From Haplodiscus bocki (taxonomy: Eukaryota): DNA of 64,000 nt. Under the pieces are notes generated by a model, which did no database searches, was not told the DNA's origin, and was given only the letters and a program-made list of their open reading frames with translations. The DNA lies in assembly GCA_965655095.1 (NCBI GenBank), contig OZ296656.1, positions 76,694,001-76,758,000 on the forward strand. Reading direction: 5' to 3'. How positions within the stretch are numbered: the stretch's first letter is position 1; the number at the start of each line of letters is the position of its first letter. Below, one piece after another: positions 26,801-62,494 of this stretch. The translations under genes were made by a program, and so were the position numbers.

Positions 26801-26883
26801 ATGTTTGAAGCATCTTTATTGGAAAACTGAAACAATGTTGAAGAAACTCTTCATTTTAAATCAATGCAACTTTCGATTAGGCA

Positions 26884-28180: not shown

Positions 28181-28347
28181 ATTCTTAGCTGGTACAACAT
28201 GTCTTGTCACCATTCAATCCCCCCCCCCCGGGCACTTCCGGTTTCATCAATTTGCACTTTTAGCCACACTCGAGAGTCCGTTGGCGCGCTGTCGCGCGCC
28301 GATCGTCTCAACTAAAGCCCTACTTACCGGCTATGCCGTCATCTTCT

Positions 28348-29480
28348 CTAGGTGGTCAGGGGATCGCGCCCCACATTAGTCCTTGCGAGGCGGGGGAGGG
28401 GCCCCTTTGCCGAGCGTTAAAATATAAGAAAAAACAAATATGCACAAACGGTATAGGGAATTAGCGATCTCAGCTCCCACCCATACGATTTGGATCAAAC
28501 TTTGCATGCGGGCATAACTTTCAATTCTAAGAACAATGGTGCTAGTTAGATCATTCTAGCAAAAATGGTTGAGGAATTATGACGGGATGATTCTGTTTTT
28601 TGGCCTCATTTTGCAGTTTTTTACCGACAGCCCTGCAAGTAACCACATGCATTTGGCCGAAACTTTTCGTGTGAAGCAGAATAAATAAGGGCTACACGCA
28701 TGCAAAAAATTTTCTACCAACTCGGCATAGGTGTGGAGATATGACGGATCAAATTTGGAAAAAAATGCCAAAAATTGATCATTTCGTCATAGCTCCCACA
28801 TTGAAGTACATAGTTTGCGCTCTGGAGTGCCTCCAGTATGAAATTGACTCCATAACTTGAAAGCTAATTTTTCGACGATGAAAAGGTTTCGGCCAGTTTG
28901 CCGAAAGAAATGACGGTTATGACGAATTTTTTGAAAAAAAATCAATTTTTACCAAAAGCTCAATTTTCCTTGTAGAATTCGTTTCTGATACTTTTGTGGA
29001 CGGATTTTTTTCGGAAACTGCTTTAGTGCAAAACGTTCTTCGACTTGGGGTAAATTTTGGGGTAAAAGTCTTCTGCGAAAAAAAATCAGTTTTTGGGAAG
29101 AAATCAAATGATGTTTTGTTATTTTTGTAAAAATGTTATCTGGTACTTTTACGAGGAACAGTTTGCGAGGTTTCTGGAGGCAAGAAACATTTCCTTGGGA
29201 AAAAACGAATTGAAGCGAGCAGCGCAGTTCGTATGGTAGAAATCTTATCTGTTTTTCCCTGCGATAATGGAAGGAAATATTCGAGCGGAAAAAAGTCGGC
29301 TATTTTCGGGAAAAAATTTTGAAAAACGGAGATCTTGCTCCGAATCCCCAATGAAAAACGAGAAATCTCAGGGTTGTCGTTGTACATATCGATTGTGGTG
29401 TTGCTTTCCAGGTAAACGTCTGTAATTTTATCCATGTCAAAATTAGCTTTTAAATCTCAAAAAATAATGAGATATGCAAA
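28348..29480. repeat. Diverged continuation of the same repeat superfamily
   Basis: Starts with ctaggtggtc and reuses the family's short motifs (aaactttgcatg, cataact, gaaacttttcg). It parallels the diverged fifth unit at 52166+. Limits approximate. Confidence 0.4.
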
Positions 29481-37500: not shown

Positions 37501-40500
37501 ACGTAAGGGAGTTGTAAGCACCACCAGAGGCACTCTGTTATACTTACTATCCGCCCTGTAATTTTATTTTGTTTTTCACAGTCCCGCTGTCTCTTGCTTA
37601 TAGTAGCTTGAACGCCAGCTATTTTTTCGTTTTCAATCGGCTGTGTCAACACTTTCACACTGTCCTCTGCTTCACCTGCCACGATGTTTGCCACTGCTCG
37701 AGCTTCAATTCCAGCGGCATATTTTGCAACGTAACGTGGTGCCATATAGTCATCACAAATTTGGACATTTGCGCTTGACTGTGTAAGTGCGAACAGAGCC
37801 GCATTAGTGAGAGAAAAATGTTTGTTAAACACAGTTGGATAATGGTGTTTCCCACCTATCAATGGCGCTTTAGCCTTTGGCGTTAAAGTTTTTTCATCAA
37901 TGTCTGCCAAACCTTGCAGCAAATTCCACGTTTCAGCAGAAAAATTGATGGGAACTTCTTTGAACAAGAAACATTGGGATGCCGGATACTTTGTGACACG
38001 GCAGATAGGCTGATTGAGGCTGTCTGTTTTCTTGTGGCATCGTTTACGGCCTTTGGTACAAATATGAACCTGATATTTTTGAAATAAATCGGCAAGCATC
38101 AAACGGTCGCCCTTGGTTAATGTGGGACAACTGATTTCCAAGGCACCTAAAAATGTTTCTTTCGAACAGCATATGCGAGATCGGACGTCAATCGAAAATT
38201 TATCTTCCGGAGTACACAATATTGCATGCAAGTTTGAAAACCCCGCAGTCTCCTCTTGCCATTCATATCTCATCCAAATGTGAGATACAGGTCCCAACGG
38301 ACGTTCTGGTGATTTCTTTATCCATTCCATGACATACTGGAAAGCTCGATACCAGCACTTGAGCATTGGCATTAGTTCAACTTGAAATGCAGCTGACAAT
38401 ACTTCCTTTGTTGTAGTATCTTCTGGGTAGAGTTCATGAAGTGCTTCAAAAATTTTTCGAATACCGGGATGGGTTGATTGCCCGCAAATATATGTCACAA
38501 AGTACGTTGGATTTTTCTCCTTGATAAAAGCAGCGAGTTCGCACACATATTTCCGGCTTTCAGCACAGTCAAACTTGAAATTATCCATTGATACAAATCT
38601 AGAATTATTCGGAGGAGAACTCACTTCCTGCAAGCCGCGATTTAAAACAATTCGAACATCAGTTTTGTGGAGTTGACTGTTCAGAAGACAGTCGAATACG
38701 TACTGCAGATATGCAGCATTACAAGAAGTTAAAAATGACCCATGTATTATACGAGTGCGAAGCATATCTTCCAAACCAGCGAAACCCAGGTGTTTGTTGT
38801 AATTCGATGATTTGTATAGAGTTGCTGGTATCGCACCGTGAAAACTTCCGTTTTCTGACTGAGACCAGAAAATTGACTGGAAAAGCAACGCTTCAGGTTG
38901 AACCAGAGGCAACGAAGTTGAGGAAGTTGAGGTTGCGGCGATATTTTCCACGAAACGTTTCTTTCAATGTTAGACTGATGGGATTTCCTTTACGCCGATA
39001 CAAAAGATTGCATTGAGAGTTCAGAAGGATATGTAACGGTAATTTAAAGTTTTCTTCCTTACGACTACGTTGAACTGAAAGAACTTTACCATCTTGACAA
39101 GGTTTTAGTTTGCTCATGAATTTGAAGTTTTCGTCAATATATTCATCATCGTTTTTTGCAGGTAACAGTTCATCTCCGACTGAAGAATTGCTGATGGTAA
39201 CAAAATCGGCTGTTTCTGCAGCTGCCTCAGGGTCTGTTGATTCAACAAATGGCATGTTACAAAATCTGTCACGCCCACCTCTTCTATTAGTTGAAACTGA
39301 TGAATCAGAATCACAAGACAACTCCATTATCTCTTCGTTTGGGCATGGAGCAGCATTTATTAGGACACGTGTGTTGTTCTCTTTCAGTCCTTCCTTGAAA
39401 TGACGCTTGCATGTACAACTATGACATTCAAAGTGTGGGCAGCGCAAAAACGAACACAGGCCGCATCTGCAACGAAAGGTACTTTTCCTAAAATCTCTCG
39501 TCAGAGGTAAATCGTGCTTTTGACAAATAGAAACGCCCTGGCCTGTCAAATTGCTCAAAAATTGCCATTTCAGTTCGGCCACGTCAGCATTTCTTGTTTT
39601 TTTTTAAAAAAAATTGCAATGTCCCAGTAACCATTGCAATGTCCCGAAAGGCTGACTGAATAACCTCGGTTGGATTGCCGTCAGTTTTTCTCGCAAATTT
39701 GCTATGCTTTTCAAAGATCCAAAACCTTTGGAAATTCTCTCCATGCCGAACCAACCAACGTGGTTGGCTTTTAGGTTCTGCATCTTTTGATCCAAGTGCA
39801 ATCAATTCATATTCCTGGCCTGAGACAACGAAGGTCAAGGGAGGTTCATTTCTGTTGCGCAAATTATTGACGGACGTGGTAGTGAAAATGGCATGAGTTG
39901 TTACATCAGGAAACTCCAAATTTGACACACAAGTAATGGTTTTGCGTTCGAACATATGGCGAATAGTGTCACAACACATTTCAAGGAATTTCGCACCAAG
40001 GACGCAACAGCATTGGGCAATGGTCGAGGCTTTGTCTTCATTTTGACATTGTTGGAGTAATTTCTTTATGGCTTCCTCCGGTCGCTGCAGAAGTATCGTG
40101 CTGTTTGCATTACGCATTGTCGTTCGGGAAATGAAAACTTTCCTCAGCAATTAGAACAAGGGTTCCAAAGTCACAGGGTATTTCGGCGAATTAACTAAGA
40201 AACAAAACATCAATGGTTACAAACAGGTTGCAGCTTGCACAAGCCACAACACATTATTGCAGTTATTGTTCAGTGGAGGGGGTGAACAATCAAAATCGTC
40301 AGTACCTTGTGCGAAAGAATAACAACTCAAAACTTCTACGTAGTTCAAATATTGCTTCCCACATTTTACCACAATTATTGCAACCTCAACGCAAGTTTCC
40401 AAGTCAGTCGAAGAGGCATGCGACAAACAACTGGTCACATTTGCCTTCTGTGGCTGATACTGAAGCATTCCGGAAGCGACATCATCAACAAGTTTGCCGT

Positions 40501-42595
40501 CTCTCACCCATTGGCAAATCAGAGTTTTATTATCGTCTCTGAAAGCGCAACAAATTCCTTCCGCCTGATACAAGATATCGCTAGTGATGTCCCAACGTGT
40601 TCTTCGCTTCAACCGAACTGTATTTATGCCACTGTAAGAACCGATACTTTTAAGTAACTGGTATGTATGGCTGGCGAAATTTGCTTTGATGTTTGTTATC
40701 CAGGAAATTGTCGGAGCTACCACACTCAAACGCTCCTCGTGGAGTAGAGCTGGTCGTGTTAAAGAAGGATGGGAAGGAGGGTGATTGTAATGAACGGAGG
40801 ACCCCTTTGAGTGCATGGAGCAAGCATGAAATACCAATGCTTCCGATTTGTCCACTCTCAAGGTTGCTGCAACTAAGAACCGTCGGAGTGATAATGTAGG
40901 TACCAAGAAATCCGATCGCATCCCGCGCAGATGCAAGTGGCTAGAAGCTTGAAAAAATGTAAACTCCGGGTAAAATAGGTTCAGAAAGTGTTTGGCTGAA
41001 ATATATCCTACTTCTTCAATGAAACACCAGCAAACGAAAAGGCACCGGACATTGGGGTAGGGTTCTTCATCTAAAGCAAGTGAAATGCTTTCTTGCTTCA
41101 AACCTTTCAATAATTGTTGAAAACGACGCAATCGAAGGGTTCCATCAACAGCACATTTGCCCTGGATTCTGCTTTTGTTCAGATATTGCTGCACACCAGA
41201 TGGAAAACATCCAATAGATCCCCACCATTGCTGCCTTATTTCCAGAGGCAATATTAACAAAATGTCTATTCTTATTTCTGTGGTTATCTTTATATCACTT
41301 AACAGTGTGAAAAACTCAGAAGGCCATGCTTCATTCCAGTCAATGCGCTCGGAGGTGCAATAACATAAACACAAATTACAAAGATAGACAAGGGATTCTT
41401 GGAATCGATTGCCAAACATTCTGTTCTTCAGTTCTGACTTGTTTTTGCTAACGAGCTTGAATGGAAGATTGAGTGTTGACTTCCGCATGCATTTTTGGCA
41501 GTAGTCAGGATAGTTCGGAACAGAACTTTTGTCATGCGTTTCTCTATTGCTTCTATCAGTGCCTGATACACTGGAAGCAGGATTGTGAAGGCTCATGCAT
41601 TTTGGTGAATGATTTCCGGTCACTTTCTTTCTGCCCTCACTCGAAGAAGTGGACAATGGCGGGTTGTATTTGCAAGTTGCGGTGACAATATTGAGATGCG
41701 ACGACACTTCTGGCATTGCAAAATGTGTTTCAGAAGTGTTAGCATCAGTAGTACTGAGCTTCGTTTTTTTCGTAGGTGGTTCTTCTGTTGTACCCTGAGG
41801 AGCTTTCAATAACTGAGTTTCAGCTCCACCAATCCTCGAAGAGAAATCCAAAGAAGAGCTAACCATTGAAGTTCTAGGCGGACACACAGTTCCATCAATT
41901 CCAATCGATAGGAGTTCATTGAATACTTCAAAGTGATTCGCATTCCTAGTTTGTTGAATGAAAATGCCTCGCCTGTCTGTATTCAAACAACATTCATATA
42001 TCAACCAAGATTTCAAAGGCACATGGTATAAATAAACGTCAACTGAAGAAATTTGACAGAAAGTATAAATTTCTATGCAAGTCCCAAAAACACCAATTTC
42101 GCCCATTTTCGAAACACAGAGGTACTCGTCAACAGAAGCACAAGTCAAAATACGATGCTGGTTGGGAAAATCATCCGAGTGAATTACAGTTTGGAAGCTA
42201 TTGGGAGGGAAATTGACCAAGTTCGTGTTTGTAACAATTACATTTCGTATAATTTCACCACAAGCCTGCATCAGACCGAGAGCAACAGCCAAAGAAGTAA
42301 AAAGGCAATTTCCATCACCAAGAATTGGAGTGACGTTCGCCCGGCGCAAAGAAGAAATGAAGCAATCTTTTGGGATTGTACTTTGCTGAATCAACAGAAA
42401 ATAACTCAACTCCAAATTAGCCAGGGAATGCAAAATGTCTTTTCTTCGGGCAGGTGACACGGATATGGCAGTGTCTGGAATTTTGTATAACACACCTAAA
42501 GGCTCTTCAGCTTGAAGTTCTGTTTGAATATCTTTGACACATTCATGATTCTCACCAGCAATATGCCCACAAGCAATGCAACGTTGACGCTTCAT
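34540..42595 (-). pseudogene. Frameshifted Helitron/Helentron-like RepHel: OTU + Cys-rich domains + HUH Rep + PIF1 helicase + GIY-YIG
   Basis: Successive minus-strand ORF pieces are collinear with the 54888-62063 protein: PTYFVTY, RYEWQ..AGFSNLH, YVAKYAAG, RPPEL, PFGGKLVIATGDFFQLPP, RRIQFPL..TIHKTMGETL, QLYVVMSRV, GYCYLL..YIG..RR..EHN. Several frameshifts and stops; the first His of HUH is lost. Confidence 0.93.
41925..42340 (-). CDS. OTU-like cysteine protease domain at the N-terminus of the decayed RepHel
   Basis: ILGDGNCLFTSLA (catalytic D/C; GDGNC at 42320-42306), central G(T)CIEI and NANHFE (catalytic H, ~41935). Confidence 0.85.
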
Positions 42596-45500
42596 ATTTC
42601 ATATCTTGTAATAAGGTGCCAGTGATAATTTTAGATAATGTCATGACCAACTCCTTCCATAACTATTTGAAAAGAAACGAGTGGTTCAAACTAGTGCAAC
42701 ACATTTTTTAAACATATTATTTTCCTAATACAAAAAACGGGTGAATACCTGACAGGAAAAAAAATTTCAATGAATGCATTCAAACTGCAACTCAACTTCA
42801 GTGAAGGGATTAAATCATCCGAGCAAACATGCCCTAAAACAATTTAGCATCACAAACGAATTGCATGAAACCTTTCAGCCTTGGTTTTGTGAGGGCTACT
42901 GAGCAAAACCAAGGCTTTCAGTGATCTCCTTCAATTCTACTTTACGAGACCGAGTGTTTTATCCAATTACAGACGTTCCCAGAACAACTTGTTCCAGTGG
43001 AAAAAGAGTGGAGACCTAAGAAATGTCGTCGCAAAAACGTATTCAGCAATTAGTTGGAGAAAAGAATCAGCTAAGTTTTTTTTCATATAGAAGTGGACTT
43101 AACAAATGTCCACCACCGTACACGAGTAGAATCTCATTAAATCACACACGAAAAACTGTAACTTAAAAAGAACATTTCCTTGTACAGAAAAACTTTCATT
43201 GCGTAAATCCATTTGATATTATTACTTTTGCAAATATTTTTGACATAATCAATAAGTAAGTGCTTAACGCCTCACCAACGCGAGAAAACTACCTAAGCAG
43301 ATCACATTCCTGAGAAAAATCAACTTTCGCCAAACAAGATAATTTGGAATTTCGTTGGAATTGAGATGCCAGAAATCAGAAGACAATCACAAAAGCAATC
43401 TACAGTCATGTGGTGTTTGCAGCCGTAAAATGCCTCGAAAGGCATTCAAATAACAACTCAACTTCTGCAGAAAGACACAAGACCAGCAATGATGGAACCC
43501 TGATCAAATTCATACATCTGCAAAAAGTCAGAGAACAATCCGCATTTTTGAGCATTGTACAATGCCTATTTGCCTTTTTTATGAAACAGAAAACACTCCT
43601 ATTTTTTTCTTCAGCCTTAGGATAATCTCGAAATTTAAACTGAGCAAAAAGGTTTATTCATCAGTTGTTGTGAGGCAAAACAATGCTCGTGCTATGCAGT
43701 GCAATCATCCAAACAGTTAAGGTGCTCATTCATTTTCCGCAAACTTTCATTTCGGATCATTCCGCTCCTATTCAGGGGTACATTCCATTATTATTGAGGG
43801 AACGCGAACAGAAAAACCAAATGGAAAAACTTGTTTATACAAAACCACAAATTTTGAGGACCTAAGAACAAAATTAACAAACAAAGAAAAGGAGCGAAAC
43901 TTAGCCTTTCGGCATTTAGAAAACACCGCGGACTACAGAAGTTCTTTAATAAAACATATGATAGTGGTTAGGAGAAACTTTTTGATTACCCTAACCAAAC
44001 TGCGCAACACAAATAGTAGTTAGGAAATGCTGACTCGCCGTTTTTTCTGAAAACTGCAACGCGAAAAAAGCATCGTTTAATTAAAATGAAACAGACTCCA
44101 ACAACAAGTAGCAAAACAATTCATTCGTCATCAGTACTCTATCGTCAAAATTAAGTACTCTTACTCCGTTGGGAAGTCGAATCATCAATTGAAAGAACAA
44201 ATTTGCTCTTGCTAGTTGATTGATTATGGCTGATAAATCAGTAATGAAACGCAATTATGTGGCACCAGCCTACAGAAAACTTAAAATTAACGCAATCAAC
44301 AAATATCAGGCAAAGAGATTTGAAAACAAGAAGTTTGGAGAAAAATTCGTTCATCAGTTGCTTTGCTAAAAATCAACGCAGCTTTGTGAATAAACGTTGC
44401 AAAACAATCAAAATAACTTTATAGGACAATTTTGTTTTAGGTGAATTGATCTTTTATCTAAACCAACCCACTGCAAGAATTTGGCAGTGATTAGAAAATT
44501 GGCATTTACTACAGAAAGACAGCAAAGGTAATAGCATTTTACAAATTGGTACATCCTTACCAAAAGTCATACCGTGATATGAAGAAGAGAAAACCAAAAT
44601 TTTGCTTTTACCCCATTTCAATTTTTCGACTTGCTACTAATTTCAGAAATGTTGACAAAATCTTTCTGGAAATTGAAATATCAAGTTAACTCCAAAAAAT
44701 AATCAAAATAAACCAACTCAAACAACCTGGTGTTGTTCTGGAGCCGGAGAATGACAAAATACAGTTTCTTGAGGCACGTTGATTGGATTCAAAATTCATT
44801 CAAAATAATGCACTGGTACTTAGGTGGAATTTGGCCAAATCTATGGAATTATATGAAAGGTACTCAAATTTTTCTGATGACTTATTAACCGTACCTTTTA
44901 CAATTTCAAGAGGATTTCAAACTCGCGAGAACCACCACACAGAAATACTGCAATGTGTATAGTTGACGTGTGGCAAGCATCGAGTTTTTTAAATGACCTT
45001 TGCTGATTCACAATGGAAATTTCGAAATACCAAGAAACTTGTGAAAAGACGTCCGAATCGACGGGACGGCTGGAGAAGTAGATGGTATCAGAAATCCAAT
45101 GAAAAGTAGTTGGAAACGAAACTTCTGACATGGCAGAAATAGAAGCATTGGGTCTGAAACGTAGCGAATACAGGTAGCATGTTACTGCATTACCTGCATT
45201 CATTTTTGTATATTTGATCAATGCGTGTACAGAAACTCCGTCAAGCAAACTGGCCAATAGTTATTCGAATGTCTGACATTGAAAAACTCACTGACGCTGC
45301 AAGGTAGTCATCATGCAGTCGCCTGTTCAATCGAAAACACTTCAGAGCAAAGAAGAAATGTAAGGTTAAAGCTCAGACAAAACGCAATCTGAGAAGATTT
45401 TGGAACACCGTTTTCAACGTTTTTAATCGTGCATGAACAAAGTCCGCTTCTTGTGCCATTGTTGAAAGCAATCAGTTGCGAAATTTGTGACTGCCTGGAA

Positions 45501-47660
45501 AAAGAAGCTATTGTCAAAGAACAACGTCCAGAAGTAAGAACTACCATTAAATGAAATTGAAGCAAGTCTTAAAGGAAGCAATGTCTTTGTAGTGAATCTG
45601 TCTCATCACTGACAGACTATTTGACACTTTTTGGCATTTGGTCCACTGACTGAGTCATTAAAGCGTCAAATCTGTCATGGTCTGTACACCTACATGGTAA
45701 ACAGGGGGGTTTAGGTCCACTCTAATTACAAAACCACTGAAAAACGGAATGAAGCGTAAAGGAGGGAAAAAGTGATAGAAGGAAGCTTCTCCTAGTAGCC
45801 TGTGTTCCTCACAGACAGACTCATAAGCAATTCAAAAAACATCATGAAAAAAATAGCACGACCGAGCGCCTTCCCTGTAGAAGAAATAAAACATCAACAC
45901 TCCAATTCACCTGAAATTGCATTGAAGTCTGACCTTTTAAACAACAACCACAGAAAAAAACTGTGCCTATATAACACGCTAATTTACTAAAAGTTGACTG
46001 AAAATAGTGTAAACATTCTTGAAAACACACGAGACTGTCAACGGCCGAGAGTAAAAGCTTATTTTGAGAAAAATACACTTACTTGAAGGCACTTCACCGT
46101 TGTCGCTTCGTTGTAGAAAAGTTTCAACAACAGTGAGATTGTAGCACTTATTGAATGCATGGCAAAAAAGTAATTCTCAAAGTAAGCAAATTGAAACTTC
46201 GGTATGACACATTTCTCCCTAAAAAACAACGATGACTTCTGCCGGAAAGATTCAACAGTTTATAATGATCAAAGGGCGACGGAAAAGACGTTAAGCATAA
46301 ACAAAAATACATTTGTAGAGAAAACATGCCCAGAATTGGCTATCCAATTGTTGTAAAACTTTGGATCCGATGAAAAATCCCAAATATCCCGCCATCTGGT
46401 AATTTTCGCCGTCGCCTCCACTGGGTGGTCCGGAACGTTTTTCAACCTCTCAGGCCGCCCGGGGAGGGACCCGGTAGCGGCACCCCCTGTGGGAAATCTT
46501 ACTTGTAATTTTTGGGTGGAAAAAAATACGATTTTGGAAATGAGCCTATAGAATTGGCTGAAATTTTGCATGTTTTTAGGTATGAGCAAGCTAATCAACA
46601 TTCCCTACTGGCGTTTTCCCGGATTTTTTCTTAAAGTTGGATTTTTTTGCCATTTTGTGACGTCAATTTCGCCTATTTTCCGTTTTTTGACGGTTTTTGG
46701 CCAAAAAGTCCAACTTCGTCCACACAACTAGTATTGCAAGTGGCTGCATGCGGAAAGTACGTCATTCGGTAGGAACAACCAGCTAAAGAAGACTGCTCTA
46801 CAACAATCTGACGTTGACTTATGATGTTTTGAAAATGGTCAAAAAAGGGTGTCAGAGAGGTGTTTTTCAGGTTTAGGGTCCCGTAACTCGTCACACACTG
46901 GTCGCAGCGGTTTCAAGGCGGTACTACCCCTTGTTGCCCATCCATAGGTCAACAAATGTTTAGCAGGGAAAAAGTCCACAAAACAAAGTGGGAAAAAGTT
47001 ATGACCCCTTTTTTGAAAAAAACCACACTTTTTCGAAATTTTGCTCATAAAATGCAATCTGGCGGCATTTTTTTCGTACAAACGGTATTGGTTCATTCTA
47101 AGTTGCAATAGTTAGCCCATTGGATGTAATTGGCTGGTGTGTTTTTGTGTTTCGAAAATTTTTCAATTTTTCGACATTTTTCAGGCCACGAATTTTGACC
47201 CACCTGACAAGATTTTCATGAGAATCGTTGTGATTTAACTGGCCATAACTTTTTTCTGGGGCACTTTATGGATTGGTACCAGCAGCTATAAAAAGCTCCC
47301 CTGGTAGGCAGCAAGGCGTATGTGAAGTTTCAAGTCTTTAGAAGCAGTTTTTCAGAAAGTCTGTGCTCTCAATTTTCAAAACTTCACTACCATTGAAAGT
47401 GGTTTTCAAAAATTTCAGATTTTTTCTATTTTGACAACATTTTATCTTCAGGTGTGGTTCAAATGAAGTTTCAGGACTTCCAAAGCAACGTCTACAGTAG
47501 TAGAAATTAAGCTCCTCAGAGTGACGCCGTTCCCATTCGTCCGCAGGGCAATGGGATCGGCGAACTCTTTCAAAACAAAAAGGTCAAAACTGAAATCTAC
47601 ACTCCGTTCCGGTAACCAGGTGGCCTATCGCCTGTAGCTGACGCAAACAATAGGCGGCCA

Positions 47661-47759
47661 GACTGATAAACAACGCTCCACGTGTCGTCGCACTCAGCCG
47701 GAACGAAGCGTGGCGAAGTGGAGGCAGTGCGACGACACGTGGAGTGTTGTTTATCAGTC
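47661..47759. repeat. 34-bp inverted repeat with 31-nt loop (one per unit; also 49095-49193, 50531-50629, 51967-52065)
   Basis: gactgataaacaac(a/g)ctccacgtgtcgtcgcact - cagccggaacgaagcgtggcgaagtggaggc - agtgcgacgacacgtggagtgttgtttatcagtc. Perfect in units 2 and 3; one G:T in units 1 and 4. Confidence 0.97.
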
Positions 47760-48958
47760 GGTTGTCAGTATTGTGTCAAAATATCTTGTATTTAACATAA
47801 AAAAGGTTTAAACACTCCTAACAACGGCCCTATTTTGACCTTAGCCTCCAGCGCTAGGTGGTCCGGAACGTTTTTCAACCTCTCAGGCCGCCCGGGGAGG
47901 GACCCGGTAGCGGCACCCCCTGTGGGAAATCTTACTTGTAATTTTTGGGTGGAAAAAAATACGATTTTGGAAATGAGCCTATAGAATTGGCTGAAATTTT
48001 GCATGTTTTTAGGTATGAGCAAGCTAATCAACATTCCCTACTGGCGTTTTCCCGGATTTTTTCTTAAAGTTGGATTTTTTTGCCATTTTGTGACGTCAAT
48101 TTCGCCTATTTTCCGTTTTTTGACGGTTTTTGGCCAAAAAGTCCAACTTCGTCCACACAACTAGTATTGCAAGTGGCTGCATGCGGAAAGTACGTCACTC
48201 GGTAGGAACAACCAGCTAAATAAGACTGCTCTACAACAATCTGACGTTGACTTATGATGTTTTGAAAATGGTCAAAAAAGGGTGTCAGAGAGGTGTTTTT
48301 CAGGTTTAGGGTCCCGTAACTCGTCACACACTGGTCGCAACGGTTTCAAGGCGGTACTACCCCTTGTTGCCCATCCATAGGTCAACAAATGTTTAGCAGG
48401 GAAAAAGTCCACAAAACAAAGTGGGAAAAAGTTATGACCCCTTTTTTGAAAAAAACCACACTTTTTCGAAATTTTGCTCATAAAATGCAATCTGGCGGCA
48501 TTTTTTTCGTACAAACGGTATTGGTTCGTTCTGTATTGCAATAGTTAGCCCATTGGATGTAATTGGCTGGTGTGTTTTTGTTTTTCGAAAAATTTTCATT
48601 TTTTCGACATTTTTCAGGCCACGAATTTTGACCCACCTGACAAGATTTTCATGAGAATCGTTGTGATTTAACTGGCCATAACTTTTTTCTGGGGCACTTT
48701 ATGGATTGGTACCAGCAGCTATAAATAGTTCTCCTAGTAGGCGGGAAGGCGTATGTGAAGTTTCAAGTCTTTAGAAGCAGTTTGTCAGAAAGACTATGCT
48801 CTCAATTTTCAAAACTTCACTACCATTGAAATTGGTTTTCAAAAATTTCAGATTTTTTTCTATTTTGACAACTTTTTATCTTCACGGGTGGTTCAAATGA
48901 AGCTGCAGGACTTCCAAAGCAACGCCTAGAACAGTAGAAATGAAGCCCCTCAGAGGGA

Positions 48959-48996
48959 CGCCGTTCCCATTCGTCCGCAGGGCAATGGGAACGGCG
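48959..48996. repeat. 13-bp hairpin capped by cc-GCA-gg (one per unit; also 47525-47562, 28003-28040)
   Basis: cgccgttcccatt-cgtccgcagggc-aatgggaacggcg. Confidence 0.9.
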
Positions 48997-51900
48997 AACT
49001 CTTTCAAAACAAAAAGGTCAAAATTGAAATCTTCACTCCGTTCCGGTACCCAGGTGGCCTTTCGCCAATCGCTCAAGCAAACCATTTGCTGCCAGACTGA
49101 TAAACAACACTCCACGTGTCGTCGCACTCAGCCGGAACGAAGCGTGGCGAAGTGGAGGCAGTGCGACGACACGTGGAGTGTTGTTTATCAGTCGGGTGTC
49201 AGTTTTGTAACAAAAATATCATTTAAATTATTATAGCAAAAGTTAAAATACTCTCAGACAACGGCCCTATTTTGACCTTAGCCTCCAGCGCTAGGTGGTC
49301 CGGAACTTTTTTCAACTTTTTCTGCCGCGCGGGGAGGGACCCGGTAGCGGCTTCCCTTATGGAAAACTTACTTTGGAAAAAACGCTGGAAAAAAATGCGA
49401 TTTTGGAAACGAGCCTATAGAATTGGCTGAAAATTTGCATGTTTTTAGGTATGAGCAAGCTAATCAACAATCCCTAGTGGCGTTTTGCCCAATTTTTTCT
49501 TAAAGTTGGATTTTTTGGCCATTTTGTGACGTCAAATTCGCCTATTTTCCATTTTTTGACGGTTTTTGGCCAAAAAGTCCAACTTCGTCCACACAACTAG
49601 GATTGCAAGTGGCTGCATGCGGAAAGTAAGTCAATCGGCGGGAACAACGAGCTAAAGAACGTTGCTCTACGACAACTTGACGTTGACTTATGATAATTTG
49701 AAAATGGTCAAAAATGGGTGTCAGAGAGGTGTTTTTCAGGTTTAGGTTCCCGTAACTCGTCACACACTGGTCGGAGCGGTTTCAAGGTGGTACTACCCCT
49801 TGTTGCCCATCCATAGGTCAACAAATGCTTAGCAGGAAAAAAGTCCCTAAAACAAAGTGGGAAGAAGTTATGACCACTTTTTTGGAAAAAACCACACTTT
49901 TTCGAAATTTTGGTCATAAAATGCAATCCGGCGGCATTTTTTTCGTACAAAAGATATTTGTTCATTCTGTATTGCAATAGTTAGCCCTTACAATGTAATT
50001 ACCTGGTGTGTTTTTGTTTTTCCAAAACTTTTCATTTTTTTGACATTTTTTGGGGCACGAAATTTGACCTACCTGACAACATTTTCATCAGAATCCTTGT
50101 GTTTCAACTGGCCATAACTTTTTTCTGGGGCACTTTACGGAATGTTACCAGCAGCCATAAATAGTTCCCCTGGTGCGCATCAACGAGTATGTGAAGTTTC
50201 AAGTCATTAGAAATAGTTTGTCAGGAAGAGGACGCGCTCAATTTTCAAAACTTCACCACCATTGAAAATGGTTTTCAAAAAATTCAGACTTTTCCATTTT
50301 TGACATTTTTTTTATCTTTACGGGTGGTTGAAATGAAGTTGCAGGACCTCCAAGACAACATCTAGAGTGCTTGAAAGGGAGTCACTCAGAGTGACGCCGT
50401 TCCCCTTCGTCCGCAGGGCAATGGGAACGGCGAACTCTTTCAAAACAAAAAGGTCAAAATTGAAAACATCACTCCGTTCCGGTAACGAGGTGGCCTATCG
50501 CCAGTAGCTCATGCAAACCATTGGCTGCCAGACTGATAAACAACACTCCACGTGTCGTCGCACTCAGCCGGAACGAAGCGTGGCGAAGTGGAGGCAGTGC
50601 GACGACACGTGGAGTGTTGTTTATCAGTCGGGTGTCAGTATTCTAACCAGAATATCAATGAAATTAACATAGAAGAAGCAAAAATACATCGTGACAACGG
50701 CCCTATTTTGACCTTAGCCTCCAGCGCTAGGTGGTCCGGAACGTTTTTCAACCTCTCAGGCCGCCCGGGGAGGGACCCGGTAGCGGCACCCCCTGTGGGA
50801 AATCTTACTTGTAATTTTTGGGTGGAAAAAAATACGATTTTGGAAATGAGCCTATAGAATTGGCTGAAATTTTGCATATTTTTAGGTATGAGCAAGCTAA
50901 TCAACATTCCCTACTGGCGTTTTCCCGGATTTTTTCTTAAAGTTGGATTTTTTTGCCATTTTGTGACGTCAATTTCGCCTATTTTCCGTTTTTTGACGGT
51001 TTTTGGCCAAAAAGTCCAACTTCGTCCACACAACTAGTATTGCAAGTGGCTGCATGCGGAAAGTACGTCATTCGGTAGGAACAACCAGCTAAAGAAGACT
51101 GCTCTACAACAATCTGACGTTGACTTATGATGTTTTGAAAATGGTCAAAAAAGGGTGTCAGAGAGGTGTTTTTCAGGTTTAGGGTCCCGTAACTCGTCAC
51201 ACACTGGTCGCAGCGGTTTCAAGGCGGTACTACCCCTTGTTGCCCATCCATAGGTCAACAAATGTTTAGCAGGGAAAAAGTCCACAAAACAAAGTGGGAA
51301 AAAGTTATGACCCCTTTTTTGAAAAAAACCACACTTTTTCGAAATTTTGCTCATAAAATGCAATCTGGCGGCATTTTTTTCGTACAAATGGTATTGGTTC
51401 ATTCTGTGTTGCAATAGTTAGCCCATTGGATGTAATTGGCTGGTGTGTTTTTGTGTTTCGAAAATTTTTCAATTTTTCGACATTTTTCAGGCCACGAATT
51501 TTGACCCACCTGACAAGATTTTCATGAGAATCGTTGTGATTTAACTGGCCATAACTTTTTTCTGGGGCACTTTATGGATTGGTACCAGCAGCTATAAAAA
51601 GCTCCCCTGGTAGGCGGCAACGCGTATGTGAAGTTTCAAGTCTTTAGAAGCAGTTTGTCAGAAAGTCTATGCTCTCAATTTTCAAAACTTCACTACCATT
51701 GAAATTGTTTTTCAAAAATTTCAGATTTTTTCTATTTTGACAACTTTTTATCTTCACGGGTGGCTCAAATGAAGTTGCATGACTTCCAAAGCAACGTCTA
51801 GAGTAGTAGAAGTTAAGCCCCTCAGAGTGACGCCGTTCCCATTCGTCCGCAGGGCAATGGGATCGGCGAACTCTTTCAAAACAAAAAGGTCAAAACTGAA

Positions 51901-52165
51901 ATCTACACTCCGTTCCGGTAACCAGGTGGCCTATCGCCTGTAGCTGACGCAAACAATAGGCGGCCAGACTGATAAACAACGCTCCACGTGTCGTCGCACT
52001 CAGCCGGAACGAAGCGTGGCGAAGTGGAGGCAGTGCGACGACACGTGGAGTGTTGTTTATCAGTCGGGTGTCAGTTTTGTAACAAAAATATCATTTAAAT
52101 TATTATAGCAAAAGTTAAAATACTACCAGACAACGGCCCTATTTTGACCTTAGCCTCCAGCGCTA

Positions 52166-53200
52166 GGTGGTCCGGGCCTCCCCCAACCTCATCCGGCCGC
52201 CTGGGGAGGGTCCCAGAGCCGGCCCCCTCTTTCTGAATTTTGATAGGTGATTTTTTGAGGATATAATTGCGATTTTGGAAACTAACCCTACGATTTTTCT
52301 AATTTTTTGCATACGGCTAGGTATGACAGATCTAAGAACTAATCCCTACTGGCGTTTTCCCGAATTTTTGACTGATGTTGATTTTTTGGCATTTTTTTGG
52401 TGCAAAAATGACGTTTTTTCGAAAAATTGGCAGTTTTTCGTCCCAAAGTCCATTTTCTTCCACACAACTAGATTAGCAAGTGCGGGCATGCAGAAAGTAC
52501 GTCAACTGGTGAGAAGAATAAGCACTAGAACGTTGGTCTACGACAAGTTGACGTGGACTTATGATAATTTGAATGTGTGCAAAAAACGTGCGAGAAGAGA
52601 CATTTCCAAATATAACGTCACATAACTCGATAACGATCATGTTTCGCGGTCCAGCATAAGAGTGCTTTTTTGTTGCCAGTCTATAGCGGAACAAATGTTG
52701 TGGAGAAAAAGTTCCTGAGAAAATTCTATGAAAAAAGTTATAACCGTTTTTTTGGGCGAAAAATCGATTTTTTCGAAATTTTTTGCAAAATAGTCGAAGT
52801 GATTGCATTTTTTCGCAAACACAGATATGGAGACCACCATAATCGCATTAGGCAGCCCAAGGGCGGCACTACACCAGGGTTAGACAGTTTTTTCAAAATT
52901 ATTTTCAAGACTTTGATTTTTTCGGCCGTCAATTTTGTCTCGAGAGAGAAAAAACAAAAAAGACAATTTCGTCCAAAACACACCATAACTTCTTTCAGAG
53001 ACTTTTTAGAGGAGTAGATAACCCTTACAAAAGTCCATGACACATACATTTCACGTCCCATGCATTTTTTGAGTTTTTGTTAACCAATGCAAAGAAAGTT
53101 GATTGACATGAAATTTTGATAATTTCTATCTTCGAACTTTCACTTGTTTCGTCTACAGAAATTAATGACAGAGCTCATACAAGTTTCAGTGATTTTTTCC
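52166..53200. repeat. Strongly diverged fifth unit of the 1435-bp array
   Basis: Collinear blocks: gattttggaaa, atccctactggcgttttccc, ccacacaactag, gcatgc.gaaagtacgtca, acaaatg, aaaaagttat, ccataactt. Neither large hairpin is present. Confidence 0.8.
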
Positions 53201-53743
53201 CTTCAATACATGTGGCTGGGTAAAATTATCCTCATGTCAAACAATTGTTCAACGAATTACCTCTAACACTGAAGCCATAAATGTCTTCCAAATGGTTCTT
53301 CGTTTGGTTTTACTATGGGCCACCTGTTGAAGCTTCCAGGCTTCTCTGGTGGTGGGGGTTCCATGGACCCCCCTGATGGTTGATCAATCAATCGGAGGTG
53401 CTAGATCTGCCTCAAGGGGCGGTGATGAATAGGGTAGGTAATTTATGTCGGTTAGTTTTTCTGCTCTTTTACCGAGCTCTCCCTAAGGACCACTTTTTTT
53501 CAAGTTTCAGGTTCTGTTCTCTTTTCTACAGAGGTAAGTTTTGCGTTCAAGTAAGTCGTCTATTGATCTGAGGTTAATCTGTATTGTTCATCCGTATAGT
53601 GGCGCTAATTGCGTCTACTCTATGACTGCAGCTTTCAAATGTTCATCCGAAATACTTCTTTTCAATGACTGTAATCACAGTGGCGATTAGTGCGTCGAGT
53701 AATGGATGCTGTGTCTGACAATTTCTCCTTTTTCCAGATAACC

Positions 53744-54310
53744 ATGTTTCTCGTGCAAGTTAATGATTTCACATTTTCGGCCTACTATGAATCCACAGAG
53801 CAACAGGTACTCATAATTGGGGACTCTCTGCTGCGAAAGTTTAACATGTCACAAACTGATAAACTTTTCTTCCCCGGAGCAAGGGCTGACGACGTTGCGG
53901 CCATCCTCCAGCTCCCACAAATCCGAAGAATTATTCAAAAGTATACAACAATATGCCTTTTTTATGGAGGTAATGCTGTCAACGATTTTCCGAAACAAGG
54001 TATACTTAGACGGGCTCAGACACCGTCTGAAGTTATGTTTGATGTTCACTATGTTTGTGAAGCCTTATCGCAGAAATATACAACGATCTTCATACTAGGA
54101 TGCCAATTAAGGTTGAACGGGACTGCAGACCGTATTAAAGAATTGAATTTACTTCTGAAGAATATCCCCACTAATGCTAAATATGTCAGTTTGTCCTCCA
54201 AGATGGCCACAGAGTATTCTGTACATGAAGACGAAGTCCATCTCAGTTGTCTGGGAATCACGTATCTGAGATCAATCATACTCCACAGAATTTTGAAAAA
54301 AATTGAATGA
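53744..54310 (+). CDS. SGNH/GDSL-type hydrolase (esterase), transposon-associated
   Basis: All four SGNH blocks are present: LIIGDSLLR (S), FPGA (G), YGGNAV (N), EDEVHLS (DxxH). The likely ATG at 53744 follows a polypyrimidine acceptor ttttccag (53737). Confidence 0.88.
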   Translation: MFLVQVNDFTFSAYYESTEQQVLIIGDSLLRKFNMSQTDKLFFPGARADDVAAILQLPQIRRIIQKYTTICLFYGGNAVNDFPKQGILRRAQTPSEVMFDVHYVCEALSQKYTTIFILGCQLRLNGTADRIKELNLLLKNIPTNAKYVSLSSKMATEYSVHEDEVHLSCLGITYLRSIILHRILKKIE

Positions 54311-54887
54311 ATAGTTTCTTCTGGTGGGACAGTTTTTGCGCTGAAATGGCTTGTTGTGATGCTAAACGGTTGCTAATTTGAACTATTTTTGTTTGCTATT
54401 GTGCTGTTGATATTGTTTCGGTTGATACTTTTGTGAATTGCTTTTTTAATGGTTCAGTTCCTTGTATGAAGTGGATATTGGGACAATCTGTTGACAGTTT
54501 GTAATTCATAAATGAACTTTGTAGTTATTGTGTTAGTAACATTTGCTCATACTGGTCGATATTATTTTTAACCAATGATTCTTTTTGTGTAACGATTTTT
54601 TTGTTTCTTCATTTCTATGACACGTTGCGATCTGAGTTTTTATGTTGCTTACTTTTTGGAATTTATTTGCAAATGTTTCATTCAAAAACAGCAAAATGAA
54701 TAATACCAATTTAACACGTTTTTTCTGCACTTGACGTTTTCGATATCTCGTTGTAGAAAAATACTCAATTCTTTTTCTATAAAAGGATGCATTAATATGT
54801 GCTTTTCGGATATGCTTTATGACTTTTGAAACTATTGGCATTTTGCTACTAGTTCCTCTTGACTTCCAGAGCATATGATTGACAATA

Positions 54888-57800
54888 ATGCCCAACAAAT
54901 CGAGTCGAAGTAGAAAGAGAATACTCTCCGATAAGTGTAAAGGTTGCGGTAGAATCAAATCATCTGAAACTTGTGCCTTCTGTCTATCCCGACTGCAATG
55001 TTCCCCTGATCCTGATGTCTTTGAGATATCCGTTTGTACAACTGAGACTGATGACAGCGAGAGCCCTGTTAATTACCCAGATGAAGTTTGTTGTTATGCT
55101 TGCCGAAGGATATCAACCAAATATCACCACTTGGACTTTCAATTGGTCCATGGTATTTATATTTGTAATCGTCAAAAATTCAGACCGGCAAAAACAACAG
55201 AAATTGTTCCCTTGTGTCAAACTTGTAATATCTACCTTAACCCGGAAGCTGAAGCTTTTGCTACAACAGCCACGTTTAAACATGCCTGGCCTTGTGTTTT
55301 TTGGTATATCCTTTCAACTGAGGACGTCTCAATTAATTTTTGGCAATACATTCCCATAGAAATGAGGAGCAGTTGGATCAATAAAACCGCCTTGAGTAAT
55401 ATTGTTTTCTGGAGTAGGATGGAATTAGTGAGCGTCCCAGTTTTTGCTGACCTGACCAACCGGAGGCAGCACTTCCATAAATTTAAGCAACAGTGGCTCC
55501 TGAATGACATGGTTAAAAGTGTTAATGAAGAGTATTTTCCCTGCGTCAAATGTCCAGTTGGTTGCGAGGAGTTCATCGACGAGTGTGGTTCAATTAGTTT
55601 TGTTCACTATCTCGGAAAAATAGTTCCCAATTTCAATAACTTTGAAACAAACCCCAACGATTTTTTACGAGGTATCAGAAGTGACTATGAATTAACTGAC
55701 TACCTGTTTGACTCGGATCCCAGATCCCCTTTCAAGAAACCTAGTATTGTTATTGATAACACAGGAATATCCATTCTAACTTGTAGGGATCATGATAAGA
55801 AAGTAAAAGATTACTACTTACATGTACCTAGGCATCCGTCAGGCCGTGTTTTCAACCCTCTGGCTGATCGATTTGCACCCGCCGTTTTGAGCACACGAGT
55901 AAGGAAACCTTTTCAAGAAAATTTCTCAACGGCTTCCTATAAGATGCTTCAACTAAACCATTCTTTTTCGGGAATTAATACTTGTTTTTTATCGGTGCAA
56001 CGGAATTTTGATAGAGTTACCGACGAAAGCATCGAACATGAGTCTTTTTATTTACATACCAGGAAAGATACAGAAATTGTGCTGAAGAAACTCGTCCAAA
56101 ACGGTTCGCTTAGTCAAAAAATAGGTGAGGCCATTCTGAAAAACCGCAATGAACGGTGGCTCGCACAAAATGAACAATTCCTCAACCACACTAATTTTGT
56201 TCCTTTGGAGACAGTAAGTTTCATTCGCTACATTAATCAATATCCTAACATCAACCCAATGACTACCATTGAGGAGCAGGAGGAGGAAGAGGTGGAGCAG
56301 GAATCCCTGGGTGATGAAAGCAGCGGTTACATTGAGGACGTTGACCATCAAGCGCCATGCGGCATAGATTACTCACAAGAGTCACCTTCTGGAACTTCTG
56401 TGGTTGAAAGTGCGGACACCTCAGGTTCAAACACCCTCCAGGAAGCAAACTTTTGTCAACAGGAACTCTTACAACGCATTGTATTTCCTTGTGTGAAACC
56501 GCTAGATAGAACTTTGGGGGCGCCTCCAAAAACGTTTGTGGTAGGATCAGATTCAGCTAAAATTTTGATTGACATGTCAGCCAACTCCGTCCTTTTCATG
56601 AGTAATGTGCTCCAAGCTTCGTTACGAAAACATGGTTTCTCTTGGAAACTTTCGGATTGTTTCCATGTTAAAAAAGGAAAAACGTTCAAACAATCCTTTG
56701 CTACAGCCCTACAAAATTTACGACATGAAATTGACGAGATTTCCATGTACGAAATTTTGTCCAAACTGCCTTTTGCTAACGTAGCCACAATAGAAAATCG
56801 ACAGAGTTCATTAGGATTCTCGAATATTGCCCCGGAAAAAGATTTTCAGGTCTATGTCAGTACTTGTCACCGAAATAGATCACTGCTTGCGCCAGAAGAA
56901 AGCTTCAATACATCATCAGGTTTGTTTCGTCTTGTGTACGTTGTGGCTGATTCACCAGTCAATAAGACATTTTTCCGATACAAGTTTTGTGAAGAGTGGT
57001 GGGATGTCTCTTCACCAGGTAGATCAAAAAAGACCTGTCAAAAACACCTTTCTTCTTTGATTTCTAACAACGCTTGGAAAGCTTTGATATACGAGAAAAT
57101 GGATTCAGATTTAAGCCAACAAGAACGTGATCGCAATGTAACCAGTGTTTTTGGTCAAGATAAAGTCTTCTGCGATAATCATGCTCTTCCCCTGTCATGT
57201 GATTTCCCGAAAAATTCTTATGTTTGTCAGTTTGATGAAAGTTGCTACCGAAAATCGGCGTGGAGATGTCCCTCTGAAAATTGTGAGAGCGCTCTCTGTA
57301 AAAGCCACTTTGAGGAAATCAATGAAAAATCTGTTGTAGTTCCACACAGCGGCAAAAATTCTTCCGCCGACAACGATGATGAGATGTCCACCGTTGAAGT
57401 TGAGGAAGTTACGGACAACGAACTTGATGGTTTAGAAACTGAAAACATTGCTCTCCTGGAAATGCCTACCGACGCCGGTTTCGTGGACGACGTTCAGCTT
57501 CAGCAGACTGATGCTGGTGCCGAGTCTGTACATTTTCACTCTAATGACGATTTGCACGCAGTTGGAAGCCACGTTATATTGAATGCGGTTTGTGCGTTGC
57601 TAAATCGACCCCGGAACCCTACCAATTTCCGTAAAAAAGAATGGCGTTTCCTGCAGTCCTTCGTTGCTAAATGTCCCGGTGAGTCAGTCCCATTGACTTT
57701 TCCTGAGGCAGCCCTTCTGCCGTCAATTTATTATATAATGGCCGAGCAATCAATCTGTGGGGCCGTCCCAGCCCCTCTTTTTTCTCCCTCGCTTTCCAAA

Positions 57801-60800
57801 AGGTTCAATTTCGCTGACATAATATCTCATATCAAAAATCGTTTAAAGGATTTTAGTCTTCTCACATCCACTGACCCACGAGTTATCCAATTCTATTTCG
57901 ATTGTTTCTTGAATTTTCAAGCTCAATACTGCGATACGCGATTCGTTTTGAACAGAGGTCTGCAAGAGTTTCGCTCACAAGAGTCCGAAAAAAGTGAGGC
58001 TCGGGTTAGAATGAATGAAGAAGACAGCCGCAAAGTAGTCAATGAGTTAGCTGCTGCAATTCGCTCGGAAGAGCCAACCTTTTTTCTGACATTCACTCTT
58101 AACCAATCGAGAATGTTTGGCGTGGCTCCTCTGTACCGCCTAGTCGAAAAGAATGTTAGAAACTTAAGTGCCTCCAAGCGAAAAAACATCATAGAGGGTT
58201 TTATGCCGCTATACATGAGACTTTGGGAACGAGCAGCTACTTTTTTCATAAAGTACTTGGAAAAGTCAACTGAAAAACCTTTAGGTACTATCAAAAACAT
58301 TTTCCCCAGGTTTGAGTTCCAGACGTCTAAGGGCAATGCTCCGCATTTGCATGTAATTATTTGGACGACTGAAAGCAAAAATGATCCTGTGATACAAAAA
58401 AAGATAGTTGGATCTTTTCGACAGCTGCTGCAGGAGTTACAAATGGAGATGCAGGATCCATCAAATAACATTGTGCAAAATGAGAAAGATGCTGATGACC
58501 TTGTTCAGTTAGCGCGGGCCACGTTAAGTCATACTTGCGAGCGTGCTGGTTTCAGATGCCATAAAAAATGTGACAACAGTGGGAACATGGTCTGCCGCTT
58601 CAAAGTTTTCGATCCATGCTTTCAGACGTTCTTCAAAGCAATTGATAGGCCGCATTCGAATGAGGTTTGGGACTTGCTGAAAAGCTTAAACTTAGCAAAG
58701 TTAGTTGAAGGTTTTCATGCCGGTTATGAAATTTGCCAAGAACTGCAAGGTGGTAGGTATAACTACGCCGCAGACTTTGGTGAAACCTTTTCACCTGTCA
58801 TAACCAAACTGTTCACTGTGATTCAAGCTAGCATGAATTCTCTACTTTGCGACCGAGTTATGTCGGCAACGTATCTCGCCAAATATGCGGCGGGCGTGGA
58901 GGAGCACGCTACTGTTCAAATCAGTGGAGAATCTAATGACACAGTATCGGTGAGCGTGAAGAAAATGAAAAATATAAAAATCGCGGGGGCTCAAATTGCA
59001 GCCAAAACTGACGAAGAAAAAACATCGAGTAACAACAATTGTAGAATTTTGTCATCCACTGAGTGTATTTGGTCTATTTTGGATTTGAAATACGTTTTCC
59101 CCACTTATGTTTGTGTGCATGTCAACACGCTTCCACTCGAGAATCGCGGAGGTATCGTACGAAAAAAATCTTATGTGCGACAGGTGGATAGACCTGGTCA
59201 GCATGATCAGGCGTTGGCGCTCGTAAAAATCAGACAGTTGAAGCAGTTTGAAGACAATCGGCTTTTTACGAAAACCCAAGAGAAAACTTTACGCGAATCC
59301 CATGATTCGCGTTTGAGCATTGATAAGGTTTCCCTCTTCGCTGTCAGGCCTCCTGAGCTGCTTTTCATTCGTGACATAGAATTTTATTTTCGGCATTTTT
59401 CGTTTGAGAAAATTAGTTTTCGTTCGGCAATTGATTGCGTTAAATCTTCGCTGCATGAAAGTTGTTGGGTGGATGGTGTTGGTCATTTGATAAGATTGCG
59501 ATCAGACAGTCTTCCCAATTTCATGACATTTCTTTCCGAAAATCGTCAGGATTCAAACCCTAGATATTCTTTTTTCGCATCTTTCTACGAAAAACGTTTC
59601 TCATCCCGAAGTTGCGTCAACTTTTTGTCGGATGAAAGAGATGGTTTTAAGAAACCTGCGGTTGTAGTGTTCCCTAATGTTATTCCGAAACACGCTCCTA
59701 ATTTTTTAATTAACTTCTTGCTGCAGTTTGGCAAGTACGAAACAGAATTTGACTTGTATAACAGTGCACTCTTGACTGTCGCATACGAGAAAGCAGGTTT
59801 ACTGGAGGACTCCACCAACGTGACTCAGGAAGATCTGAATAAACTTTTGAAAAAATTCATTTTGCGCCGCGTTGTTTTCGTCCCTGGCTCGCATGTTTCG
59901 CAGGATAGACAAATACTCGAAGCAAAAGCTGCTTTCAGCTTACTCATGGATTGCCCTGAGAACCTGGACACTCCCACTATCATTTACAACGCTTTGCGAG
60001 ATGAATGCTCCCAGGAACTTCAGAACGCTATTAATAACAAATTTTGTGCTGTGGCGTCACAGCTCTACTCTTTAGTACAAGATTCGGCGAAACCTGACAT
60101 CGAGTCGATACTCAATAAACAGGCAAGCGATCCCCTTCGTTACAATCCCCTGTGTTCCAACGATATCAAATTCAACGAAGAACAAAAAGTAGTTCTGGAA
60201 AGTTTACTGAGAACCCTTGATACTTTCGTGAGCTCTGCTCCTCGATTTTTTCGATTCCAGTTTGTGGTAGGGATGCCAGGTTCTGGGAAAACGTTTGTTA
60301 TTGTACATGCACTCCTTTATGCTTTGTGTATCGGACTTGACGTAATGGTTACCTCACTGAGTAGTGAACGGGCGATGCAATTCTCCGGTGTTCATATACA
60401 CGAACTTTTTGGTCTTCCGGTCGCTAAACGTTTGATCGTTGATGAAATCGCTGAAAACGCTCTGAAAAAACTTAATTGTGATCCTATTCGAACAACAGTT
60501 CTTAGGAGGATAGATATCCTGTATTTCGAAGAGATAGGTATGGTCTCGGCCGAAGAATTTGCGGCGATTGACTTGATCATGCAAAAGGTACGAGACAATT
60601 ACTCGCCTTTCGGCGGAGTTTTGGTGCTTGGAACCGGTGATCCGAAGCAACTTCCGCCACCGCAAGGTCGATTGCTCTGGACATCCCCAATCATACTTAC
60701 AAGCGTTACAATGCACGCCTTAGAGAAATGCGTTCGGATGGTTGACGTTGTCGGTCGCGAGTTTTTGAATATTTTGTCAAGTCCAAAAATTACCGAAACC

Positions 60801-62063: not shown

Positions 62064-62163
62064 AGTTGTGTAAATACTTGCTTTTCTTCATACACCGTGG
62101 AGTGGAGTAGGAAGCGACCTTCTAGGATGAACTGCGACATGTGAGTATGAGGCACTGCACAAT

Positions 62164-62461: not shown

Positions 62462-62494
62462 GTGTAATATTTTGACATGAAAAGTATATGATCC

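Follow-up and report, generated by a model that had tools for sequence, protein, structure and literature searches.

Terminal hairpins and tandem arrays are already known for Helitrons, transposons whose RepHel protein combines an HUH-Y2 Rep nuclease with a PIF1 helicase, and it is with these elements and their relatives that the DNA described here is best compared. This DNA is a 64,000-nucleotide stretch of Haplodiscus bocki contig OZ296656.1 (positions 76,694,001 to 76,758,000; called as a whole the window), in which four head-to-tail units, each with a long palindrome, lie between two RepHel genes.

With the canonical Helitrons (HLE1, exemplified by Helraiser) the locus shares a RepHel with HUH-Y2 and PIF1 domains, a hairpin followed by CTAG at one end, a T next to that motif at one host-like flank, and arrangement in head-to-tail arrays (PMC4778049, PMC5876387). 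In contrast to Helraiser, its hairpin stands ~33 nt from the end rather than 11 nt, no TC follows the join, and there is a 34-bp subterminal palindrome as well as a C-terminal Slx1-like nuclease. This palindrome is longer than the hairpins described for Helraiser (19 bp; PMC4778049) and for HINEs (5-10 bp; PMC4067079). With the HLE2 group (Helitron2, Helentron and HINE/DINE-1, including FoHeli) the locus shares stem-loops near both ends and a RepHel that can lie reversed (PMC3627910, PMC4067079, PMC5148889), an extra nuclease after the helicase, and an SGNH-type open reading frame (PF13472 on 3 of 120 listed fish proteins). On the other hand, DUF6570 is missing, GIY-YIG replaces the AP endonuclease, the HUH spacing is different, and a long branch separates the protein from 8 fish HLE2 proteins. 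A GIY-YIG domain is known from HelenSM92, a Helitron-like family of Sphagnum found with HELIANO; compared by description only, HelenSM92 differs in that its domain is reported as a single capture, in an HLE2 family with short terminal inverted repeats and TT sites (PMC11417382). It is the only GIY-YIG-bearing Helitron-like family found in the literature covered (Repbase and subscription journals were outside the scope), where 'RepHel' with 'SLX1' returned nothing; the available part of the report on a third Helitron clade, in Paramecium, does not mention GIY (PMC13085455).

The unit of the array is likely a non-autonomous Helitron-like element. Our tentative proposal is that its palindrome forms a hairpin on a displaced single strand and is cut at the base by the Slx1-like nuclease of a partner RepHel.

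Conservation of the palindrome

The palindrome occupies 99 nt (inverted 34-nt arms on either side of a 31-nt spacer) and is present in 4/4 array units, just as the initial annotation had described it. Only 1/99 of its columns varies among the four units, against 212/1340 in the rest of the unit (binomial P 7.7e-7); the sole variable column is position 15 of the left arm, G in units 1 and 4 and A in units 2 and 3. A 99-nt segment as clean as this turns up, anywhere, in 7/20000 column permutations (both statistics treat sites as independent). The conservation of the palindrome exceeds chance expectation, and its folding z scores are -11.4 and -12.5, one per strand.

The one outside unit found comes from a metagenome (L001). 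It differs from the four array units at 13-15% of other sites and at 3-4/99 sites of the palindrome (P 6e-4 to 2e-3). When all five units are compared, 4/99 palindrome columns are variable (21.4 expected, GC-matched), apportioned as 2/34 in one arm, 1/31 in the loop and 1/34 in the other arm, and 34/64 columns vary in the AT-rich block that directly adjoins it. (In a contig of run X5 that spans 49160-49286 there are 11 differences, and the 10 listed for 49204-49252 fall outside the arm.) Column conservation and L001 together support the suggestion that the site is kept by selection or conversion. Unit 3, which had been called clearly diverged apart from its palindrome, is so over its first 1100 columns and yet not beside the palindrome: in the 140 columns to the left it shows 11-13 differences, compared with 15 between units 1 and 2.

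Four blocks of the unit are conserved, the palindrome among them, and three of the four are inverted repeats. The other most conserved stretch of the unit is marked by an internal 19-bp inverted repeat (48067-48149 and equivalents; 45-nt spacer).

Four distinct arm substitutions are seen, all transitions, and 3/4 of them keep G:U pairing on the plus strand. This retention of pairing, the folding of the surrounding 250 nt into several stems, and four sub-threshold Rfam matches to microRNA precursors (31-33 bits) would suit a palindrome that acts, with its neighbouring hairpins, as RNA, either as a small-RNA hairpin precursor or within a structured transcript. But substitutions that are transitions without exception are expected to give one-strand wobble, conservation is as high in the loop as in the arms, and the Rfam scores, of a kind that any long hairpin gives, are far under the gathering scores of 80-200, which no match in the window reaches. 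We regard a role as RNA as quite improbable.

The tandem unit and its ends

The array units are 1433-1437 bp long. In runs X1, X2 and X10 contigs lead from the end of the repeated stretch back into its start, the period being close to 1436, and in runs X1 and X2 the family occurs in tandem and in many copies. The same head motif opens seven stretches of the window: besides the four units these begin at 26884 (a dispersed copy), 28348 (a distant head) and 52163 (a diverged fifth head). On the minus strand each head has a G+C-rich hairpin, ~33 nt, and then CTAG (6/7) or CCAG (1/7); CTAG agrees with the 3' CTRR of HLE1, the short hairpin of which lies 10-12 nt before that end. The head hairpin covaries in six heads, with a score matched by 6/500 shuffles. 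After CTAG, at 26883, the minus strand continues with T and then unrelated AT-rich DNA, where an HLE1 element, which inserts between A and T without duplication, would also have T; the bases that follow the array joins on the same strand are CG, TG and AG, not the 5' TC of HLE1. The unit and the presumed autonomous element have one end in common, ~70% identical over 846 nt. The 11-17 bp subterminal repeat of HLE2 was not found: loop and junction share no inverted match longer than 7 nt (9 nt in the case of the first unit), and none of the 25 longest pairs is an 11-17 bp repeat pairing both ends.

At the other joins the sequence after CTAG is related in part: the tail of the array matches the tails at 46420 (P 0.0035) and at 28347 (P 0.022), 3/6 comparisons among the four tails being not significant. 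This layout fits a head-to-tail chain of Helitron-like elements that ends at 26884; head-to-tail Helitron arrays are already known (PMC5876387, PMC5148889). When the window is read as such a chain, the palindrome sits 97-196 nt inside the end opposite to the CTAG head, not at the junction. In L001 (its first 60 nt, minus strand) and in runs X5 and X10 (loose ends at 49262), three data sets in all, the junction block is preceded by one and the same alternative sequence, the tail of another subfamily with the last 30 nt in common.

The initial annotation had listed a Rep nick origin among the possible roles. Such an origin in the loop is less likely because the sharp boundary of the unit lies 97 nt away from the palindrome, at the CTAG motif. 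In its more general form the idea is that the loop is a true or alternative element end, nicked by Rep, with the stem presenting the site as in the rolling-circle origins of single-stranded DNA viruses. The match of the dispersed copy does stop 4 nt into the loop, TC stands at the arm-loop border like the 5' TC of HLE1, loop and junction have words in common (7-9 nt inverted and 8 nt direct; shuffle P 0.005-0.044, post hoc), and Helitrons with multiple 5' ends are known (PMC5148889, PMC11417382). However, the array starts at a CTAG-type motif and not at the loop, five family switches coincide with the CTAG-type motif, 0 of the 24 loose ends listed (of 220) fall in the loop, and where unit 3 and L001 have the 8-nt word of the head altered, the loop does not change with it. 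An end within the loop is, in our estimate, improbable.

The further suggestion that the palindrome is a junction of terminal inverted repeats, abutted in a tandem cut-and-paste element with the 31 nt as spacer, fares worse and is very unlikely. The dispersed copy ends 4 nt past the left arm, as a right end would, but of the 9 occurrences of the arm motif in the window 8 belong to the array and 1 to the dispersed copy, and none stands at the array start, at the dispersed-copy start or past 52065. Moreover, the 31-nt spacer recurs in L001 with 1 change, unlike a target duplication, and the adjoining enzymes are HUH Reps, with no DDE family among the 28 window open reading frames scanned. In the dispersed copy a hairpin-rich block (28181-28347), possibly an alternative end module, replaces loop, right arm and tail, and is followed by the head at 28348.

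The RepHel genes and their lineage

The RepHel encoded at 54879..62063 has the HUH motif, two catalytic tyrosines and the PIF1 helicase. Helitron_like_N is matched by 11/20 of its relatives scanned, and the profile matches Helraiser (E 1.2e-27). Its GIY-YIG domain has the fold and the catalytic residues of an Slx1-type nuclease at 17-25% identity, and is predicted from this fold to be a branched-DNA nuclease like Slx1; unlike the structure-selective endonucleases Slx1 and At-HIGLE, it is fused to a transposase.

The lineage comprises 314 representatives at E<=1e-30. Its members (54879-62063; P0002-P0012, P0014-P0161) have a C-terminal Slx1-like GIY-YIG domain and longer HUH spacing. DUF6570, present in the control P0013, occurs in 0/26 lineage proteins scanned, as does Exo_endo_phos (the AP endonuclease), in whose place GIY-YIG stands. 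A quick tree, without sequences from HLE1, other HLE2 subgroups or Paramecium, separates the 26 lineage proteins from 8 fish HLE2 proteins by a long branch (SH-aLRT, the approximate likelihood-ratio branch support, 100). The lineage seems to be absent from the current Helitron classification, and the unclassified elements of HELIANO may include it. A 2.5-kb piece of the lineage, 32% identical, is present in a bacterial metagenome-assembled genome (L002) and is likely eukaryotic DNA wrongly binned.

Form and possible role of the palindrome

The loop carries two CGAAG motifs, as had been noted; 2.3% of 20000 dinucleotide shuffles of the loop also have two. An argument from exceptionally stable C-GAA-G mini-hairpins had been built on them. 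The very stable CGAAG heptamer requires a second Watson-Crick pair, which neither context here (A-CGAAG-C, G-CGAAG-T) supplies, and the loop folds no better than its shuffles (z -0.15); the argument is weak.

The palindrome had also been called cruciform-capable. Folding of the inverted repeat is predicted by the z scores given above; a double-strand cruciform is doubtful: two hairpins in place of duplex have a computed cost of ~55 kcal/mol with the 31-nt spacer, versus 13 with a 4-nt loop (a rough estimate that ignores the four-way junction and supercoiling). Cruciform extrusion favours short spacers, with 76 bp as the cut-off for negligible extrusion (PMC2908449). A hairpin in single-stranded DNA is the likelier form. 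Of the three roles that had been proposed, that of a GIY-YIG substrate is strengthened, since the domain folds like Slx1, but a single-strand hairpin is a more likely substrate for it than a double-strand cruciform. The disfavoured extrusion from a long spacer (computed cost; PMC2908449) also counts against host selection on the palindrome within a structural satellite, centromere-like or a pairing site. In favour of it are the abundance and tandem arrangement of the family in runs X1 and X2 and the presence of Helitron-derived arrays at plant centromeres (cited in PMC5148889), but this array has four units only and lies between two RepHel genes; we hold a satellite role to be highly improbable.

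The units are mosaics, and breakpoints of the kind that had been predicted are seen at the palindrome. Unit 4 agrees with unit 1 over a run of 15 sites that ends at the left arm, and then with unit 2 over 20 sites in a row that begin immediately past the right arm; L001 has a weaker haplotype shift at the same place, and the dispersed copy changes in the loop. As support for a site of exchange these breakpoints are suggestive only.

The pathway that we propose would start from units standing head-to-tail, with a sharp boundary at the hairpin...CTAG motif, and from a diverged head that leads in the direction of an intact RepHel gene with a GIY-YIG domain at its end, both of which the window displays. 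RepHel would nick the end-to-end junction (the CTAG join), peel off one strand and form circles or concatemers, which would account for the array. We consider these first steps, and with them the identity of the element, probable. The 34-bp stem would then fold on the peeled strand; the Slx1-like domain, if its fold is a guide, would nick the branch between stem and single strand, providing a primer for the second strand or resolving an intermediate; and such cuts would make the palindrome a site of sequence exchange between neighbouring units. For the hairpin as substrate we put the chances a little short of even.

Several findings weigh against it. Other blocks are equally conserved in the five units (hairpin A with 2/42, the internal 19-bp inverted repeat with 4/83 and the junction block with 0/33 variable columns), and another, non-overlapping 99-nt segment also has 4 variable columns. 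Among the 34 stem pairs 31 are invariant, 2 are wobble pairs and 1 is broken; two-sided changes number 0/34, so covariation does not demonstrate folding. The head hairpin covaries among six sequences that are related, and a control of this kind may be passed even where there is no structure. Other haplotype switches occur elsewhere in the unit, the prior for a single switch falling within an 87-nt interval is 6%, and switches are in any case drawn to long identical blocks. The dispersed copy has no right arm and the presumed ends of the left RepHel element (45400-46420 and 28150-28500) hold no perfect stem of at least 8 bp, which implies that the hairpin is not universally needed. The Slx1-like domain is found throughout the lineage and could instead have target cutting or the resolution of joints as its task. 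What links unit and enzyme is their adjacency and a head that is 70% identical, and for the right RepHel element the other end was not found within the window. Polarity is also uncertain, since either choice of strand leaves one of the two RepHel genes reversed (an orientation that occurs in Helitron2, Helentron and FoHeli families; PMC3627910, PMC4067079, PMC5148889).

The principal alternative is that the palindrome has no function in the element, and that as a break-prone or long identical block it is copied between units by host repair and homogenised faster than its flanks. The mosaic units, with switches in and near conserved blocks, are consistent with this, as are the equal invariance of loop and arms with no covarying pair, the high-copy tandem state of the family in the sequenced runs, and the stimulation of recombination by inverted repeats (PMC2908449). 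On the other hand, with 34/64 columns variable in the adjoining AT-rich block, conversion tracts would need sharp stops; the conservation extends to the outside metagenome unit L001, and hairpin A is kept in the dispersed copy with 1 substitution. Homogenisation alone seems to us unlikely, if less so than any of the other alternatives considered.

Terminal hairpins of adeno-associated virus (AAV) and other parvoviruses are long stems on which an HUH Rep acts and which prime synthesis. The likeness to the palindrome is an analogy of working only, that of a long stem as an HUH Rep substrate; here the loop lacks stable inner palindromes, the hairpin lies inside a tandem unit, and the open reading frames scanned gave no match to a capsid gene. 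On a fuller reading these elements would be another major lineage of rolling-circle transposons, whose RepHel brings its own Slx1-type nuclease, with the 34-bp hairpin as dedicated site and a cut at its base letting the strand self-prime, parvovirus-like, into the double-stranded circle that transposition requires. We think this fuller reading rather unlikely.

Other features of the window

Table 1. Positions of array, palindrome and RepHel features within the window
Feature	Position	Strand	Remarks
Array of four head-to-tail units	46421..52162	-	46421-47853, 47854-49290, 49291-50726, 50727-52162; strand taken from the presumed hairpin...CTAG end
Palindrome, unit 1	47661..47759	.	Arms 47661-47694 and 47726-47759; one G:T pair
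Palindrome, unit 2	49095..49193	.	Perfect 34-bp arms; loop 49129-49159
Palindrome, unit 3	50531..50629	.	Perfect arms
Palindrome, unit 4	51967..52065	.	One G:T pair; switch from unit-1-like to unit-2-like haplotype inside
Junction block, 46 nt, invariant	49258..49303	.	Spans presumed join 49290/49291; also 47821-47866, 50694-50739, 52130-52175
Presumed 3' end	49291..49367	-	G+C-rich hairpin ~33 nt before CTAG; also 47854, 50727, 52163, 26884, 28348; CCAG at 46421
Hairpin A, 13-bp stem	48959..48996	.	In all units and dispersed copy; also 47525-47562, 50395-50432, 51831-51868, 28003-28040
Diverged fifth head	52163..53008	.	~70% identical over 846 nt, E 3.7e-92; leads towards coding region
Dispersed copy, 82% identical	26884..28181	-	Begins at CTAG motif; retains hairpin A, left arm and 4 nt of loop, then different sequence
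Further distant CTAG head	28348..28509	-	E 0.0079 to profile built without it; possibly far end of left RepHel element
Intact open reading frame, 2394 codons	54879..62063	+	HUH-Y2 Rep, PIF1 helicase, C-terminal Slx1-like GIY-YIG domain
Second RepHel-GIY-YIG gene, other family	34540..42598	-	Broken into several frames; 26-36% identical to the gene at 54879..62063
Open reading frame, 211 aa, SGNH/GDSL-hydrolase-like (lead only)	53675..54310	+	No Pfam match

If 28348 is the far end of its element, the left RepHel lies sense in an element of 18 kb (28348-46420); the 6 kb at 28.5-34.5 kb gave no Pfam match in 9 open reading frames scanned. Downstream of the intact RepHel, 62140-62771 holds short repeated motifs and a 146-bp near-duplication, possibly element-internal repeats. 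A small G+C-rich hairpin cluster (53340-53430) stands just before the SGNH-like frame, at about the distance from its head that the hairpin cluster of the unit has, with no sequence likeness to it.

A second tandem array occupies 1-4547 of the window (period ~1414 bp, copies 99.5% identical) and ends sharply at 4547; it has no clear homology to the 1.4-kb unit and no perfect stem above 9 bp. A LIM-domain-like stretch at 16483-16923 (minus strand; E 7e-4, below the Pfam cut-off) is probably an exon of a host gene.

Implications

Should the hairpin be no more than a hot spot of conversion, the find at the DNA level would be an ordinary repeat feature and the interest would lie in the lineage. 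Active Helraiser donors are double-stranded circles (PMC5876387), and the reading of the palindrome as a dedicated hairpin would, if true, provide Helitron transposition with its missing second-strand step, in a form that is two-component and reconstitutable. With an intact 2394-codon RepHel that carries an Slx1-like domain, beside a short candidate substrate with defined hairpins, the window makes testable how a peeled strand is converted to double strand and what the extra nucleases of some RepHel proteins do.
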